A stretch of DNA of 20,792 nt from the UHGV virus genome UHGV-1788846, one strand, 5' to 3'. The translations under genes and the position numbers were made by a program. Origin of the DNA: a virus. Position 1 is the stretch's first letter. The number at the start of each line of letters is the position of its first letter. Below the pieces are notes generated by a model that searched no databases, was not told where the DNA came from, and worked only from the letters and a program-made list of their open reading frames with translations. Below are positions 9,202 to 13,551 of the stretch, piece by piece.

Positions 9202-9206
9202 TTTTA

Positions 9207-9232
9207 GGGAGAGCCGAGGCTCTCCCTTTTTT
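9207..9232 (+). terminator. Rho-independent terminator: GGGAGAGC-cgag-GCTCTCCC followed by TTTTTT
   Basis: Perfect 8-bp GC-rich stem with 4-nt loop and a six-T run, closing the unit that ends with gene 52. Confidence 0.85.
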
Positions 9233-9258: not shown

Positions 9259-9287
9259 TTTACAACCAAAGCATACTGTGGTATTAT
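9259..9287 (+). promoter_or_regulatory. T4 early-type promoter for motA: -35 TTTACA (9259-9264), 17-nt spacer, -10 TATTAT (9282-9287) with TGg
   Basis: Canonical spacing; near-identical in promoter and leader to the one at 5405-5433. Confidence 0.75.
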
Positions 9288-9328
9288 ACAACTATCAACT
9301 ACTGATACAGAATTACGGAGATTAGAAA

Positions 9329-9964
9329 ATGTCTAAAGTAACTTACATCATCAAAGCTTCTAACGATGTTCTGAATGAAAAAACTGCTGCGATTTTAATT
9401 ACCATTGCTAAGAAAGATTTCATTACAGCTGCAGAAGTTCGTGAGGTGCATCCAGATTTAGGTAATGCAGTAGTTAATAGTAATATTGGGGTATTGATTA
9501 AAAAAGGCCTGGTGGAGAAATCTGGTGATGGATTAATCATTACTGGTGAAGCTCAGGATATTATTTCAAATGCAGCAACTTTATACGCACAAGAAAATGC
9601 TCCGGAACTGCTGAAAAAACGAGCAACTCGTAAAGCTCGTGAGATTACTTCTGATATGGAAGAAGATAAAGACTTCATGTTAAAACTTTTAGATGAAAAT
9701 GGATTTGTTCTTAAAAAGGTTGAAACTTATCGTAGTAACTATCTCGCTATTTTAGAAAAACGCACTCACGGAATTCGTAATTTTGAAATTAACAACAATG
9801 GAAATATGCGAATTTTTGGATACAAAATGATGGAACATCATATTCAGAAATTTACTGACATCGGAATGTCATGTAAAATCGCTAAAAACGGTAATGTGTA
9901 TCTTGACATTAAACGCTCGGAAGAAAACATTGAAGCAGTAATCACTGTAGCATCTGAACTGTGA
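9329..9964 (+). CDS. motA: MotA, activator of middle transcription, 211 aa
   Basis: 211 aa with RBS GGAG; sequence matches my recollection of T4 MotA. Confidence 0.9.
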   Translation: MSKVTYIIKASNDVLNEKTAAILITIAKKDFITAAEVREVHPDLGNAVVNSNIGVLIKKGLVEKSGDGLIITGEAQDIISNAATLYAQENAPELLKKRATRKAREITSDMEEDKDFMLKLLDENGFVLKKVETYRSNYLAILEKRTHGIRNFEINNNGNMRIFGYKMMEHHIQKFTDIGMSCKIAKNGNVYLDIKRSEENIEAVITVASEL

Positions 9965-9974
9965 GGAATAAATA

Positions 9975-10304
9975 ATGAACAAGTTAGAAATTGTCAATGA
10001 ACTTCGTCGTTGCGCAGAACCTACTCAAGAGGGTTGGGATATTTGGTACCATGGAGCTTATCTTGGAACTATCGTAAAGATTAAGACTGGTAAATACATG
10101 ATTATTCGTGAAAGTAAAGATGCTCCAGTAGGTATTCGCAATAATTTTATGGCAGCAATAAGTTCATTTACAGATGCAGCTTACGAAATTTACCTTGATG
10201 ATTATAAAGAATTCCAGGAATCTCAACCGGTTATTCGTTCAATTGGTGTTAACAAAGCTCAGCAGAAAACTTTGTGGCAACGTATTAAAGGATGGTTTAA
10301 ATGA
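9975..10304 (+). CDS. Hypothetical early protein, 109 aa
   Basis: ATG with RBS GAGGAATAA immediately after motA. Confidence 0.55.
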
Positions 10305-10762
10305 ACCCATTTATCAATCGTTTAAAAATGCTGAATGTTCCTTTATCTCGTGAGACTCCAGAAAGTCTTGTTCAAAAGTTTAAAGCGCACGGTTATAAAT
10401 GCACAGAAGAAGATATTCTGAAAGAAGTTCCTGAAATTTGTTGGCAGACTGCGTACTGGGATGAAAACCAAAAGTATCAACGACGAATTGTCTGCGCAGC
10501 CAACCGTTTTAAATTAAAAGATGGACGAACTCTTATTATTCCAGGTGCTCGTCATTATTCTAAAGATATGGCAGAAGTTTTAGATGTAGTTAAACCTCAA
10601 TTAGTTACTCAACAAGTTTGTGATGATGACCAAGGGTTTATTGACCAATATAGTAATTATTGGACACGTGAAGAAGCAATGATTATTGCAACTTACGCTG
10701 GACAAGTACGTATTGAACGTGGTGGTAGTGAAAAAGAACTTTACTCTGAGGACCTTTACTAA
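10301..10762 (+). CDS. Hypothetical early protein, 153 aa
   Basis: ATG overlaps the upstream stop (ATGA); no motif I can assign. Confidence 0.55.
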
Positions 10763-11058
10763 TGAATATTAAAAAGTTTCAAATTGATGGAATTATGAAT
10801 CAAATCCAGGCACTGGAATATGCTAATAAAATGATGTCAACTAATTGGGGAATTTATACCAATGAGCCGGGATTTCAGTTCTGTAATATGGAATTCACCA
10901 AAAAGCTCGTAGGAAAAGATTATGTGTGTCCATTTAGTTCTCCAGTAAATGGAATGTTAAAACCTGCTTTACGCGATCTTTATATTGCGATGAACGAAGA
11001 AATGATAAAAGAGTTAAAACGTCAACTGAAGGTGATTCAATTTGGCCAGGGAAATTAA
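10762..11058 (+). CDS. Hypothetical early protein, 98 aa
   Basis: ATG overlaps the upstream stop (TAATG). Confidence 0.55.
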   Translation: MNIKKFQIDGIMNQIQALEYANKMMSTNWGIYTNEPGFQFCNMEFTKKLVGKDYVCPFSSPVNGMLKPALRDLYIAMNEEMIKELKRQLKVIQFGQGN

Positions 11059-11260
11059 TTCAAAATCTGATTATTTTAATTCTCTCAATGATAAAGATAA
11101 AAATCTAATACGGCATTTTATTGTTGAGATGGGATATACCGATACATGTGATTTAAGAGAACACATATTTGAATGTGGTGTAGCTAAAAAGTTTTCATTC
11201 ACATGCAAATGTTTGAGAGAGGTAATTCAGCACTATGAACAATTTAGTCGCAAAGCATAA
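11042..11260 (+). CDS. Possible small Cys-containing protein; 72 aa from a TTG start, or 43 aa from the in-frame ATG at 11129
   Basis: Open frame with four Cys in a C-x8-C…C-x-C arrangement; start codon uncertain and no clear RBS. Confidence 0.3.
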   Translation: MAREINSKSDYFNSLNDKDKNLIRHFIVEMGYTDTCDLREHIFECGVAKKFSFTCKCLREVIQHYEQFSRKA

Positions 11261-11343
11261 TTTTAATAAAGCTTCTGTTCATAAAGATAAGAAGAAAGCG
11301 TTTAAAGAATCTAATCGCAAACAGAAACATAAGGGGAAGGTCT

Positions 11344-11622
11344 ATGATTATTGATTCTCAGTCCGTGGTTCAATACACAATCAAAATTGATATTCTAGAA
11401 AAGCTATATAAGTTTCTACCAAATTTATACCACTCAATTGTCGATGAATTAGTTGAAGAACTACATCTTGAAAATAACGATTTCTTAATTGGAACTTATA
11501 AAGACCTCTCAAAAGCAGGATATTTCTACGTAATTCCAGCTCCAGGAAAAAGTATTGATGATGTATTAAAAACTATAATGTTTTATGTCCATGATTACGA
11601 AATTGAAGATTATTTCGAATGA
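11344..11622 (+). CDS. arn: Small acidic protein, 92 aa, possibly the Arn anti-restriction (McrBC inhibitor) homologue
   Basis: ATG with RBS AAGGGGAAGG; acidic composition; 92 aa and located just upstream of asiA. Identity from position, size and charge only. Confidence 0.45.
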   Translation: MIIDSQSVVQYTIKIDILEKLYKFLPNLYHSIVDELVEELHLENNDFLIGTYKDLSKAGYFYVIPAPGKSIDDVLKTIMFYVHDYEIEDYFE

Positions 11623-11771
11623 GTCATAATCTTGAAAAGGTAATCGAGCATAATGTAGCTCAGGAACGTAAGTCGTTCAAGGAATTCGTAGAAAAAATTT
11701 TTGAAGAAAATAACACAGATCAGTTTACAAATCAAGCGTCTGATGATATTATAACAAAGTCAACTAATTGA
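11619..11771 (+). CDS. Putative hydrophilic micro-ORF, 50 aa (MSHNLEKVIEHNVAQERKSFKEFVEKIFEENNTDQFTNQASDDIITKSTN)
   Basis: ATG overlaps the upstream stop (ATGA); fills the gap before asiA; below the ORF-track size cutoff. Confidence 0.35.
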   Translation: MSHNLEKVIEHNVAQERKSFKEFVEKIFEENNTDQFTNQASDDIITKSTN

Positions 11772-11783
11772 GTGGTATAGTTA

Positions 11784-12056
11784 ATGAATAAAAACATTGA
11801 TACAGTTCGTGAAATTATTACTGTTGCGTCTATTTTGATTAAATTTTCCAGAGAAGATATTGTTGAGAATCGTGCTAATTTTATTGCATTTCTGAATGAG
11901 ATTGGAGTAACACATGAAGGCAGAAAGTTAAACCAGAATTCATTCCGTAAAATTGTTTCTGAATTAACTCAGGAAGATAAGAAAACCCTCATCGACGAAT
12001 TCAACGAGGGTTTTGAGGGTGTATATCGATATCTAGAGATGTATACAAACAAATAA
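11784..12056 (+). CDS. asiA: AsiA anti-sigma70 factor, 90 aa
   Basis: 90 aa; N-terminus MNKNIDTVREIITVASILIKFSREDIVENRANF matches my recollection of T4 AsiA; RBS GAGTGG. Confidence 0.9.
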   Translation: MNKNIDTVREIITVASILIKFSREDIVENRANFIAFLNEIGVTHEGRKLNQNSFRKIVSELTQEDKKTLIDEFNEGFEGVYRYLEMYTNK

Positions 12057-12713
12057 TTATTTAGCCCTTCCTAATATTCTGGCCGCCTGAGAACATATTG
12101 ATTCAAGGCGGTCATTACTTATATGATCATTTCTATACCAGTACATGGTTATTGTTCCAGCATAGATATTATCCAAATTGAAATATGGACAACTGTACAT
12201 GTAATTTATTTCGGGAGTAGGCTTTTTGGTTGGTAAAAAAGCAAATTTTGAGTTGGAATAATAATGACGTCCATTTAAATGAACTGTATATTCATCCATA
12301 GTTTTATCAACAGGATATCCTCCAAGTGATTTTTCACTTATTGTTGAAGGTAATTTTCCTTCGTATGCTATAATATCAACAAAATAGTTTAAGTTTTTAG
12401 GGCGGAAAGAATATACCGCACTAAAGTCTGCCTCAGATGATATATGAACTATCTGGAGTTGTTCCAGGGCGACAGATTCAAAGCGTGCATTTCTTTCCTT
12501 TTCAACAATTTCACGGTATGTTTCATACTTTGATTGCTTATAGTACTCAAAGAAACTATCTCCCCTATACCAAACAATCGCCATTATAAACAAAAGAATT
12601 ACGACAGCTACCCGGGAAGCAAGAACCTTCCCGGTAGCGTTATCTTTGAACAAGCGATCTAGAACACCAAATAGAATATCAGAGGGCGAAAATGATATTC
12701 TAGGTGCTGCCAT
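12057..12713 (-). CDS. t: Holin T, 218 aa
   Basis: 218 aa with an N-terminal transmembrane segment (VAVVILLFIMAIVWY) and a large periplasmic domain; strong RBS AAAAGGAGGG; position between asiA and gene 38. Confidence 0.9.
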   Translation of the reverse strand: MAAPRISFSPSDILFGVLDRLFKDNATGKVLASRVAVVILLFIMAIVWYRGDSFFEYYKQSKYETYREIVEKERNARFESVALEQLQIVHISSEADFSAVYSFRPKNLNYFVDIIAYEGKLPSTISEKSLGGYPVDKTMDEYTVHLNGRHYYSNSKFAFLPTKKPTPEINYMYSCPYFNLDNIYAGTITMYWYRNDHISNDRLESICSQAARILGRAK

Positions 12714-12744: not shown

Positions 12745-13551
12745 TTATACTCTTGCACCATATATTGTACCAACTTTAGTCCAAGTTGGAGCATTACCAG
12801 TAACAGCTTTACCCGCAGCACCAGCACCACTGGCATTATAGTTTGATGTACGAACGGCAGCACCACCAGCCGCACCAACGTTACCACCAGCACCACTCAT
12901 GTTATTACCATCAACGGTTACTTTACCACCTGCGGCGGTTAACGATGCATTACCACCATTACCACGACCACCTCGACCACCAGTACCGAACGGACGGCCA
13001 CCACCGCCGCCAGCGACGCCAGCTAATGTGAAGTTATAGTCTATGGACCAACCACCACCGCCGCCACCGCCGCCAGCAATTGCACCATTATTCGTAATAC
13101 GTAAGCGTGTACCAATACCATTATTAATCGCTGTACCACCAGCAGTTGCTCGAACCAAAGCATCTCCAGAACCTCCACTAGATCCAGATCCATTACCTCC
13201 TCGGCCATAAACAGTAACGCCAGAGTTAATAATCAATGTCACGTATTCATTAGTTAATGAACTAGGAAAATCTAAGCATGGAATAGTTGAAGAACTAGAA
13301 ACAATATCTCCTGTTATTGTTACAACAGCAGGAGCTGTTCCAATTGATTTAAGCCAATTAATTAAAGTATCTTTATTATATGAATGATTTGAGCCAATTG
13401 AATAAGCTTTTTCAACTGACTTTCCTGCCATTGAGCTCATCCAGCCGGGAACTGAAACACGAACAGCTTTCATCGCAGCATCCATCCAACGTTGTCCAGT
13501 TTCATTCACGGCAGATTCACCAATCCAGCCAGGAACACCTACAATTGCCAT
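12745..13551 (-). CDS. 38: T2-type gp38 long-tail-fibre tip adhesin, 268 aa, with glycine-rich motifs and variable segments
   Basis: N-terminal conserved domain followed by Gly-rich blocks (GRGGNGSGSSGGSG, GGGGGGGG, GGGGGRPFGTGGRGGRGNGG, SGAGGNVGAAGG) separated by short variable stretches. Located directly downstream of gene 37. The T4-type gp38 is a 183-aa chaperone, so this is the T2/K3/Ox2 form. Confidence 0.85.
   Translation of the reverse strand: MAIVGVPGWIGESAVNETGQRWMDAAMKAVRVSVPGWMSSMAGKSVEKAYSIGSNHSYNKDTLINWLKSIGTAPAVVTITGDIVSSSSTIPCLDFPSSLTNEYVTLIINSGVTVYGRGGNGSGSSGGSGDALVRATAGGTAINNGIGTRLRITNNGAIAGGGGGGGGWSIDYNFTLAGVAGGGGGRPFGTGGRGGRGNGGNASLTAAGGKVTVDGNNMSGAGGNVGAAGGAAVRTSNYNASGAGAAGKAVTGNAPTWTKVGTIYGARV

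Follow-up and report, generated by a model that had tools for sequence, protein, structure and literature searches.

Most of the small genes around those for MotA and AsiA have no assigned function even in the best-studied phage family, a gap of long standing. A stretch of 20,792 nucleotides from the virus genome UHGV-1788846 (hereinafter, the window) carries such a block at positions 9975 to 11771, which a first-pass annotation, made from the sequence alone, described as six uncharacterized early ORFs and, given the neighborhood, as plausible undescribed inhibitors of host defense or host macromolecular synthesis. The question is what these genes are, and whether their products counteract host defense or serve the phage in some other way.

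Identity and organization of the block

The relevant genes and sites are the following.

9259..9287, plus strand: sigma-70-type promoter-like site (TTTACA-17-TATTAT with TG) 5' of motA, from a promoter scan
9329..9964, plus strand: motA, middle-transcription activator, left border (Pfam MotA_activ, 4.7e-61; MotCF, 7e-66)
9975..10304, plus strand: arn.4, intact 109-aa form
10301..10762, plus strand: arn.3, 153 aa (phrog_839, 5.3e-74)
10762..11058, plus strand: arn.2, 98 aa (phrog_1844, 4.5e-51)
11042..11260, plus strand: arn.1, long form of 72 aa, starting with TTG (phrog_4452, 4.5e-38 over 1-71)
11046..11055, plus strand: ArcZ pairing site CCAGGGAAAT, arn.2 +285..+294 (published site)
11113..11117, plus strand: GCATT, 11 nt before the ATG at 11129, proposed in the T2 study as an RNase E motif
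11235..11354, plus strand: Lys-rich 39-aa gene, Pfam DUF7230 (PF23876), 44.9 bits (gathering score 27)
11344..11622, plus strand: arn, T2-type allele with I13, D34, S70 and F80 (Pfam DM_Arn, 1.5e-52)
11619..11771, plus strand: asiA.1, 50 aa, acidic, pI 4.9 (phrog_3762, 9.6e-38)
11724..11752, plus strand: sigma-70-type promoter-like site (TTTACA-17-TATTAT with TG) in the 3' end of asiA.1
11784..12056, plus strand: asiA, anti-sigma-70 factor, right border (Pfam AsiA, 1e-42)

Judging by the sequence, the block is almost certainly the arn operon of a T2-like Tequatrovirus. Published genomes of the T2/T4 type match it with 97.8% DNA identity over 2.8 kb, with 478 phage records reaching a query coverage of 80% or more. 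The locus is already known: it matches almost exactly a region in which the T4 and T2 annotation names arn.4, arn.3, arn.2, arn.1, arn and asiA.1, so the description of these small proteins as undescribed does not hold, and nothing new is added on the locus as such. The placement of the block between motA and asiA was borne out by Pfam matches on both sides, and the six ORFs of the first-pass annotation are real and lie on the plus strand, the fourth with alternative starts at 11042 and 11129. The block nevertheless comprises seven tightly packed small genes rather than six, the 39-aa DUF7230 gene between arn.1 and arn having been missed; this ORF is the only one without a name in the T2/T4 annotation. 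The stop-start overlaps are as claimed, with ATGA joining arn.4 to arn.3 and arn to asiA.1, and TAATG joining arn.3 to arn.2, and the small genes would be translationally coupled.

Every ORF matches a PHROG family (E-values from 1e-23 to 5e-74), and pN is far below pS in the ORFs compared with phages of other genera, which is indicative of purifying selection. The gene order arn.4-arn.3-(arn.2)-(arn.1)-39-aa ORF-acidic protein of about 90 aa-MSHNLE protein-asiA is largely kept across the five genera compared (Tequatrovirus, Mosigvirus, Dhakavirus, Kanagawavirus and Jiaodavirus). Some lineages lack arn.2, arn.1, the acidic protein or the MSHNLE protein, and the most widely conserved genes within the block are arn.4, arn.3 and the 39-aa gene.

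The acidic 92-aa ORF, previously called Arn-like, is Arn itself, the DNA-mimic inhibitor of McrBC, an identification made at the sequence level: the protein scores 176.2 bits against DM_Arn (PF22134; cut-off 26) and is identical in 88 of 92 residues to the crystallized T4 protein (PDB 3WX4), with residues 1-92 aligned to 1-92. Its composition is strongly acidic (17 D+E against 7 K+R; pI 4.46). The protein is expected to form an acidic DNA-mimic dimer that fills the DNA-binding site of McrBC, and also that of H-NS, and would thereby shield incompletely glucosylated hydroxymethylcytosine DNA. DNA mimicry against McrBC, a mechanism shown elsewhere and identified here by sequence, is very probably the activity of this protein. 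According to a 2026 preprint, inhibition of the PUA-Cal-HAD defense system by T4 Arn requires N70, and T2 Arn, with S70, neither binds nor inhibits that system; since the protein encoded here carries S70, it is predicted to lack PUA-Cal-HAD inhibition.

The site at 9259..9287 is the only strong promoter match able to drive the block; the second site, at 11724..11752, is placed to serve asiA. No terminator-like site was found on the plus strand between the 9259 promoter and asiA, and an Rfam scan of the window yielded no family. The block is probably transcribed rightward, with or after motA. The label 'early' of the first-pass annotation holds only in part: for the block, a sigma-70-type promoter is seen upstream of motA alone, and a T2 RNA-seq preprint (10.64898/2026.06.19.733364) counts the arn genes among the middle transcripts. 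A strict scan of the plus strand produced no MotA box and a relaxed one a single weak site (9705-9733), and as there is nothing convincing in front of arn.4, the 'middle' class derives from that preprint and not from the sequence.

Coding content: arn.1, the ArcZ site and the 39-aa gene

The possible Cys-containing protein of 43-72 aa in the first-pass annotation exists and is arn.1. From its coding signals and conservation, arn.1 is the 72-aa form with a TTG start, not the 43-aa form that begins at the internal ATG (11129). The TTG is preceded by a good Shine-Dalgarno sequence (AAGGTG, 11029-11034); across Mosigvirus, Kanagawavirus and Jiaodavirus, residues 1-29 are kept at the protein level, with ATG or GTG starts at the equivalent position; two genera have Leu instead of the internal Met30; and the N-terminal extension shows a pS of 0.57 and a pN of 0.15. 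The remark on cysteines turned out to be slight: a Cys4 zinc-binding reading of Arn.1 was rejected because only C45 and C57, two of the four cysteines, are conserved, C36 being Arg in T2 and C55 variable.

The 39-aa product is very basic (pI 10.2; 12 K+R) and its ORF overlaps both the stop codon of arn.1 and the start of arn. It matches DUF7230 with an E-value of 1e-11, and its orthologues in other genera score 31-49 bits against the same family. The ORF was detected in all nine comparison loci, with five Tevenvirinae genera sampled, at 69-100% identity, and is listed as a hypothetical protein in T2, JK42, MX01 and others; Dhakavirus retains it though it lacks arn.1 and arn. As DUF7230 has no known function, membership in it is uninformative with regard to mechanism.

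That part of the block is non-coding, with the 70 nt from arn.2 to the internal arn.1 ATG acting as a regulatory RNA and the 39-aa ORF being a chance frame, would agree with the T4 and T2 annotation, in which arn.1 has 43 aa, with the omission of the 39-aa ORF from the T4 reference annotation, and with the treatment of 11059-11128 as intergenic in the T2 study. The protein-level conservation of the arn.1 extension, its start codons and its Shine-Dalgarno sequence all speak against this reading, as do the stability of the RNA at the arn.2-arn.1 junction, which is no higher than that of shuffled sequence (z = 0.02), and, for the 39-aa ORF, a score above the DUF7230 gathering threshold, persistence in Dhakavirus, and values of 0.68 for pS and 0.14 for pN over the non-overlapping codons; we consider it extremely improbable. 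The same low estimate applies to the suggestion that the 39-aa peptide is an ArfA-like ribosome-binding factor with a Lys/Arg-rich tail in the mRNA channel. By eye, the peptide (…VHKDKKKAFKESNRKQKH…) does resemble Escherichia coli ArfA from MG1655 (…VEKNKKGKGSYMRKGKH…), but hhalign of the 39-aa profile against ArfA gave a probability of 0.2% over 6 aligned columns, and Pfam scans of the 39-aa sequences with E-values of up to 10 returned DUF7230 and one sub-threshold DUF4748 hit, never ArfA. The likeness appears to be compositional, and homology to ArfA is effectively refuted.

The long form of arn.1 changes the context of a published regulatory site. In the T2 study, pairing of the host sRNA ArcZ is reported to stabilize the arn mRNA and to protect it from RNase E, the arcZ defect is suppressed by loss of mcrC, and whatever benefit the transcript measurably brings in E. 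coli K-12 is explained by Arn and McrBC alone; the equivalent of 11059-11128 is drawn as intergenic and as the location of the RNase E site (10.64898/2026.06.19.733364). In the window, CCAGGGAAAT is a perfect 10/10 complement of nucleotides 65-74 of E. coli MG1655 ArcZ (AUUUCCCUGG) and spans the 3' end of arn.2 together with codons 2-5 of long-form arn.1; the GCATT motif also falls within the long arn.1 reading frame. With translation starting at the TTG at 11042, ArcZ would pair directly over the initiation region of arn.1, so that the pairing may control arn.1 translation besides mRNA stability. The published ArcZ/RNase E model takes coding sequence for an intergenic spacer, and the overlap of the ArcZ site with the arn.1 start suggests a refinement of it that is directly testable.

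Arn.3 and the possible roles of the non-Arn proteins

Confident homology to proteins of known, unrelated function was sought for the six non-Arn proteins and found for none. Sequence and profile searches of the PDB with Arn.4, Arn.3 (two profiles), Arn.2, Arn.1, the 39-aa ORF and AsiA.1 returned nothing below an E-value of 0.1; Pfam, NCBIfam and PADLOC gave no informative match (only noise in the case of NCBIfam and PADLOC), and fold searches gave no convincing one. In the literature on arn.1-4, we found no assigned function; a preprint of June 2026 still calls these genes "unknown" and voices, without evidence, the idea that they are counter-defense genes (10.64898/2026.06.19.733364). The comparative data allow somewhat more to be said. 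Arn.4 has a pS of 0.61 and a pN of 0.12 against phages of other genera; Arn.2 is represented by 23 homologue clusters, with homologues 37-45% identical in Mosigvirus, Dhakavirus and Jiaodavirus; and the N-terminal MSHNLE motif of AsiA.1 is kept across genera. The six would accordingly be conserved accessory proteins maintained by purifying selection, among which Arn.4, Arn.2, Arn.1, the basic 39-aa peptide and the acidic AsiA.1 might, as a guess, be stoichiometric binders of host macromolecules.

Arn.3 stands apart. Its variable helical N-terminus (approximately residues 1-55) is followed by a conserved core of about 90-95 aa with the invariant residues R61, N68/R69, R84-H85, Q111-G-F-x-D115, R123, Q135, S149-E150 and the C-terminal Y153, the last three of which belong to a terminal Ser-Glu-x-Leu-Tyr; the invariant polar residues hold in 24 close and 40 distant members of the family. 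The first-pass statement that no catalytic motif could be placed needs a qualification: Arn.3 has a set of invariant polar residues resembling an enzyme or ligand site. The core is matched at E<1e-3 by at least 3,416 protein clusters (50% identity), most of them free-standing proteins of 85-130 aa, and was seen in this analysis almost solely in phage-type sequence. The AF2 model reaches a high confidence (pLDDT 86.9, pTM 0.83) and displays a compact beta-beta-alpha-beta-beta-alpha fold, for which no convincing match was found in the PDB. The most probable role of the core is that of a binding or catalytic site whose ligand bears a phosphate, putatively a nucleotide-derived molecule or a nucleic acid.

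Several leads on the Arn.3 family were followed. An assignment to Prok-E2_B was rejected, given the score of 13.9 bits against a cut-off of 25.4 (E-value of 0.053) and the lack of a match in any of the 40 distant members. A Foldseek search of BFVD retrieved uncharacterized phage proteins, one 'putative polynucleotide kinase' and three 'large polyvalent protein associated domain-containing' proteins (E-values from 6e-3 to 9e-2). Polyvalent proteins have been proposed to deliver anti-defense functions. In 214-434-aa proteins in which the Arn.3 core is fused to other sequences, the N-terminal partners had no Pfam or annotated PHROG match. All 120 of the listed Arn.3 homologues bear the precomputed label PF26092. 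A pattern-limited scan of bacterial genomes for the core recovered one MAG contig; since tighter patterns were applied there than to viral contigs, a phage-restricted distribution is indicative only. The 80 viral loci surveyed for gene context collapse into 34 context groups, with no neighbor common to more than 4 groups; the recurring neighbors in other phages are genes for DNA ligase, helicase, topoisomerase II subunits and ribonucleotide reductase. The placement of Arn.3-like genes fits a metabolic role as well as a counter-defense role.

On what side of this divide the non-Arn proteins fall can be argued either way. The first-pass annotation relied on the takeover and anti-restriction character of the neighborhood, which is indeed apparent from the MotA and AsiA flanks and from Arn, but an inhibitory function was found for none of the six. 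From this context we would guess, tentatively, that they are host-factor binders or counter-defense proteins. A different possibility, in our estimate a rather unlikely one, is that these proteins, and Arn.3 in particular, work in phage DNA or nucleotide metabolism or in taking over transcription and translation, and not in anti-immunity: a nucleotide enzyme, modulators of RNA polymerase beside MotA and AsiA, and a basic peptide that binds RNA or the ribosome would be examples. The two RNA-polymerase effectors that flank the block point in this direction, along with the enzyme-like invariant residues of Arn.3, the strongly basic 39-aa protein, and the fact that the only recurring neighbors of Arn.3-like genes are those for replication and nucleotide metabolism; moreover, anti-defense cargo tends to turn over fast, and the wide conservation of arn.4, arn.3 and the 39-aa gene is more in keeping with core accessory functions. 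Against it, none of the Arn.3 neighbors is universal, nothing in the block is homologous to a known family of enzymes or of RNA-polymerase-binding proteins, the one characterized member of the operon, Arn, is an anti-restriction protein, and the three marginal BFVD matches of Arn.3 are to polyvalent proteins. Position does not discriminate because in large phages, metabolic and anti-defense genes are intermingled in the early and middle regions.

Returning to the counter-defense reading, its most specific form would make Arn.3 a new class of phage enzyme or sponge able to break down or sequester a nucleotide-derived signal of host immunity or a nucleic-acid feature, and the arn.4/arn.3/39-aa core a second counter-defense module beside Arn; this is a speculative proposal that we regard as doubtful. 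Either way, with thousands of phage relatives, an enzyme-like site and no structural precedent, Arn.3 is the block's most promising target. The account as a whole, that is, a T2-like arn operon in which Arn acts against McrBC and is accompanied by six further accessory proteins, is likely to be correct.

Relation to the T2 and T4 arn operons

The comparison exposes errors and omissions in the reference annotations: arn.1 has 72 rather than 43 aa, the 39-aa gene is unnamed, and arn.4 is a defective copy in T2 and has the wrong start in the T4 record. Anyone designing deletion or expression studies from the faulty annotation of arn.1, arn.4 and the 39-aa gene would be misled.

With respect to the arn operon of T4 and T2, the block has the same gene order, sizes and overlaps, with 97-98% DNA identity, and the same position, motA - arn.4-arn.3-arn.2-arn.1-arn - asiA; the ArcZ site and the RNase E motif lie at the positions published for T2 (10.64898/2026.06.19.733364). 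The differences are confined to individual genes. Whereas arn.4 is intact here (109 aa), the T2 copy carries a 2-nt deletion that causes a frameshift, which implies that the gene is dispensable in laboratory hosts, and in the T4 reference record NC_000866 its start reads ATA instead of ATG. The 50-aa asiA.1 likewise contrasts with a T2 copy in which a 2-nt deletion alters the C-terminus, and arn.3 is one codon longer than in T4. Compared with the Arn of PDB 3WX4, the protein agrees in length and in its acidic character and differs as a T2-type allele. The T-even members of the Arn.3 family carry the helical N-terminal extension of approximately 55 aa that most members of PHROG 839 lack, and the PHROG 839/PF26092 family itself is unannotated, PF26092 being absent from the Pfam release scanned here.

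Identity of the motA-asiA block

The region 9300-12100 is 97.8% identical at the DNA level, over its full length, to published T2/T4-type phages (vB_EcoM_112, T2, RB18 and others), and coverage of this query reaches 80% or more in 478 phage records. Gene names are taken from the annotated records of T2 (LC348380) and T4 (reference NC_000866): 52, motA.1, motA, arn.4, arn.3, arn.2, arn.1, arn, asiA.1 and asiA, and in both annotations asiA is followed by t (holin) on the opposite strand. The block is an already known locus, and its earlier interpretation is upheld in part. Downstream of the holin gene lies a glycine-rich ORF of 268 aa (12745-13551, - strand), which we take to be a T2/T6-type gp38 adhesin, not the T4-type gp38 assembly chaperone, an assignment that would fit the T2-like identity of the window.

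Genes of the block and its borders
9329-9964, + strand: motA (Pfam MotA_activ, 4.7e-61; MotCF, 7e-66)
9975-10304, + strand: arn.4
10301-10762, + strand: arn.3
10762-11058, + strand: arn.2
11042-11260, + strand: arn.1
11235-11354, + strand: Lys-rich 39-aa ORF, MNNLVAKHNFNKASVHKDKKKAFKESNRKQKHKGKVYDY, pI 10.2
11344-11622, + strand: arn (Pfam DM_Arn, 1.5e-52; 88 of 92 residues as in PDB 3WX4)
11619-11771, + strand: asiA.1
11784-12056, + strand: asiA (Pfam AsiA, 1e-42)

All six ORFs reported in the first-pass annotation are present at the positions it gave, with the stop-start overlaps that it described (ATGA at arn.4/arn.3 and arn/asiA.1, TAATG at arn.3/arn.2), and the Pfam matches bear out MotA and AsiA as the borders. 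The gene count is seven, not six, the 39-aa ORF having been overlooked, and the acidic 92-aa protein considered Arn-like is Arn itself. Every listed ORF matches a PHROG family (E 1e-23 to 5e-74). In Nei-Gojobori comparisons with phages from other genera, synonymous and nonsynonymous proportions (pS and pN) were 0.61 and 0.12 for arn.4, 0.58 and 0.15 for arn.3 (compared with Dhakavirus), and 0.73 and 0.44 for arn.2. The PHROG matches, together with pN far below pS, show that the listed ORFs did not arise as chance frames.

The proposal that the small proteins are undescribed inhibitors of host defence or macromolecular synthesis holds insofar as an anti-restriction gene, arn, is present and takeover genes surround it; for the remaining genes there is no demonstration, here or in the literature. 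Nor are they undescribed: names exist in the T4/T2 annotation, and the conjecture is already in print, in a June 2026 preprint that calls the functions of arn.1-4 unknown and a counter-defence role 'conceivable' (10.64898/2026.06.19.733364). A literature search by gene names, protein accession, Pfam id and PHROG id found no paper on these genes beyond the preprints cited here. NCBIfam and PADLOC searches of the uncharacterised proteins of the block returned noise alone, and no PDB sequence relatives of Arn.2, Arn.1 or AsiA.1 were found.

Conserved core and variable slots

The order arn.4 - arn.3 - (arn.2) - (arn.1) - 39-aa ORF - acidic 88-99-aa protein - MSHNLE-initial protein - asiA is largely kept in Tequatrovirus, Mosigvirus, Dhakavirus, Kanagawavirus and Jiaodavirus. 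Some lineages lack arn.2, arn.1, the acidic protein or the MSHNLE protein, and there are lineage-specific insertions (51, 59 and 112 aa) as well as losses. By this comparison, the stable core of the operon consists of arn.4, arn.3 and the 39-aa gene. That some phages carry insertions between arn.4 and arn.3 points to this junction as a hot spot for gene gain.

Features of the comparison loci
L009 1202-1357: inserted gene between arn.4 and arn.3, 51 aa
L006 1847-2185: inserted gene between arn.4 and arn.3, 112 aa
L008 1763-1942: inserted gene between arn.4 and arn.3, 59 aa
L002 2872-3171: acidic protein in the Arn slot, Mosigvirus
L007 3046-3312: acidic protein in the Arn slot, Kanagawavirus
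L008 2887-3165: acidic protein in the Arn slot, Jiaodavirus

The homologues of arn.4 form 55 clusters, nearly all of 107-119 aa, with the N-terminal 41 residues belonging to the best-conserved part of the protein, and the 109-aa gene is intact in the window. The 68-aa annotation has a separate cause in each reference record. In T2 it reflects a 2-nt deletion, matching window 10053-10054, that shifts the frame (T2 locus L001, 1176-1300), and this frameshift shows that arn.4 can be dispensed with in laboratory hosts; in the T4 reference (NC_000866, L010), ATA stands where the start ATG is expected, and this ATG is present in two re-sequenced T4 stocks. Arn.2 is narrowly spread (23 clusters), with homologues 37-45% identical in three other genera. 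Elsewhere in the block, a second 2-nt deletion in T2 (window 11750-11751) alters the C-terminus of AsiA.1, and arn.3 of T4 is one codon shorter than that of the window (10719-10721).

The 39-aa ORF shares 26 nt with the end of arn.1 and 11 nt with the start of arn. Its match to Pfam DUF7230 exceeds the cut-off (44.9 bits, gathering score 27), and it also matches phrog_1359 (5e-23). It is kept in 9 of 9 comparison loci at 69-100% identity and occurs in each of the five Tevenvirinae genera examined, even in Dhakavirus phages without arn.1 and arn; in its non-overlapping codons, pS is 0.68-0.93 and pN 0.07-0.23. The gene has no name in the T4 reference annotation. A likeness of the peptide to ArfA, spotted by eye, was rejected by profile comparison (probability 0.2%).

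Arn inhibits McrBC and H-NS as a mimic of DNA (Ho et al. 2014, cited from PMC12871103). According to a January 2026 preprint, N70 additionally enables T4 Arn to block the PUA-Cal-HAD defence system, an activity absent from T2 Arn, with S70, and from T4 Arn N70S (PMC12871103). The window allele is T2-type (I13, S70, F80; plus D34), and because it shares S70 with T2 it is predicted to lack PUA-Cal-HAD inhibition. The acidic proteins in the Arn slot of Mosigvirus, Kanagawavirus and Jiaodavirus did not match Pfam DM_Arn at E 0.01; they have pI 4.3-4.5 and the terminal [IL]-x-DY motif of Arn, and full-length identity to Arn is 28% for the Jiaodavirus protein. These proteins are probably fast-diverging Arn relatives, and Arn itself seems to evolve fast within a slot that stays fixed.

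The Arn.3 family

Arn.3 stands apart in the block as the one protein whose features do not suggest a simple binder. Its C-terminal core of ~95 aa is conserved; the ~55 residues before it vary and are for the most part confined to T-even-like phages. In an alignment of 24 relatives the invariant residues are R61, A66, A67, R69, R84, H85, Q111, G112, F113, D115, Y120, R123, A130, Q135, L147, S149, E150 and the C-terminal Y153; among 40 distant stand-alone members, the invariants shrink to RH, QGF, R, Q and L..E..Y-COOH, with the proteins terminating exactly at the conserved tyrosine. We infer that Arn.3 has a site for a phosphate-bearing molecule, either catalytic or ligand-binding.

Searched exhaustively with a profile, 1.84 billion representative proteins yielded 3,416 clusters at E<1e-3 (1,314 at E<1e-10); among the best-scoring 150 of the 3,416, stand-alone proteins of about 85-160 aa predominate and some are C-terminal fusions, the partners of which had no match in Pfam or annotated PHROG. 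Foldseek against BFVD retrieved mostly uncharacterised phage proteins and, at marginal E (6e-3 to 9e-2), three 'large polyvalent protein associated domain-containing' proteins. No Pfam family recurred across the 40 distant members, and a relation to Prok-E2_B was rejected, a single weak match (E 0.053) not being reproduced in them.

Arn.3-like loci were confirmed in viral contigs in 341 cases; 80 of them were kept and sort into 34 context groups with no neighbour common to all, DNA ligase, helicase, topoisomerase II subunits and ribonucleotide reductase recurring in 2-4 of the 34. A scan of 185,579 prokaryotic genomes, with patterns stricter than those for viral contigs, found one MAG contig.

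Transcription, the arn.1 start and the ArcZ model

Signals on the window
9206-9227: terminator-like hairpin after motA.1
9259-9287, + strand: sigma-70-type site before motA, TTTACA-17-TATTAT with upstream TG
11046-11055, + strand: ArcZ pairing site, CCAGGGAAAT, perfect complement of MG1655 ArcZ nt 65-74
11113-11117, + strand: GCATT, putative RNase E motif, position as published
11724-11752, + strand: sigma-70-type site inside the asiA.1 end, before asiA, TTTACA-17-TATTAT with upstream TG
12014-11982, - strand: hairpin inside asiA

The two sigma-70-type sites are the only strong matches on the + strand. No terminator-like hairpin was found between motA and asiA, and a strict MotA-box pattern had no site on the + strand of the block (a relaxed scan found one weak site, inside motA). 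These observations suggest that the block is read through from the motA promoter. In T2, arn.4 through arn are treated as one middle transcript (10.64898/2026.06.19.733364); the middle class rests on that preprint, not on the window sequence. The genes asiA (+) and t (-) converge at 12056/12057 with zero bases between the stop codons, and no terminator-like hairpin was found between them.

The first-pass annotation left the length of the Cys-containing arn.1 product at 43-72 aa; the ORF is present, and the long form is favoured by N-terminal conservation. The T4/T2 annotation starts arn.1 at an internal ATG (11129), giving 43 aa. The frame from TTG 11042 is preceded by a good Shine-Dalgarno sequence (AAGGTG, 11029-11034), and residues 1-29 are kept at the protein level (..SK[AS]DYFNS[LV]N..K..I..FI.E[ML]GY) in Mosigvirus, where the long form starts with ATG, and in Kanagawavirus and Jiaodavirus, where Leu replaces the internal Met, so that the short form cannot start there. 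With pS 0.57 and pN 0.15 in the extension, the evidence indicates that arn.1 is the 72-aa form with a TTG start. A Cys4 metal site in Arn.1 is ruled out because, of its four Cys, conservation is limited to C45 and C57.

The T2 preprint shows that the host sRNA ArcZ pairs with arn.2 +285..+294 and shields the transcript from RNase E, the putative recognition motif being a GCAUU located 11 nt 5' of the arn.1 ATG; the arcZ defect is suppressed by mcrC loss (10.64898/2026.06.19.733364). Both sites lie at exactly the same positions in the window. Given a 72-aa arn.1, the '70-nt intergenic region' of the published model is coding, the conserved N-terminal part of arn.1 within 11042-11128, with the ArcZ site over codons 2-5 and the GCAUU motif within the frame; thus, ArcZ could also affect arn.1 translation. 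The remaining value of the analysis is chiefly in two things: the Arn.3 family, and those corrections to the annotation with a bearing on the published ArcZ model.
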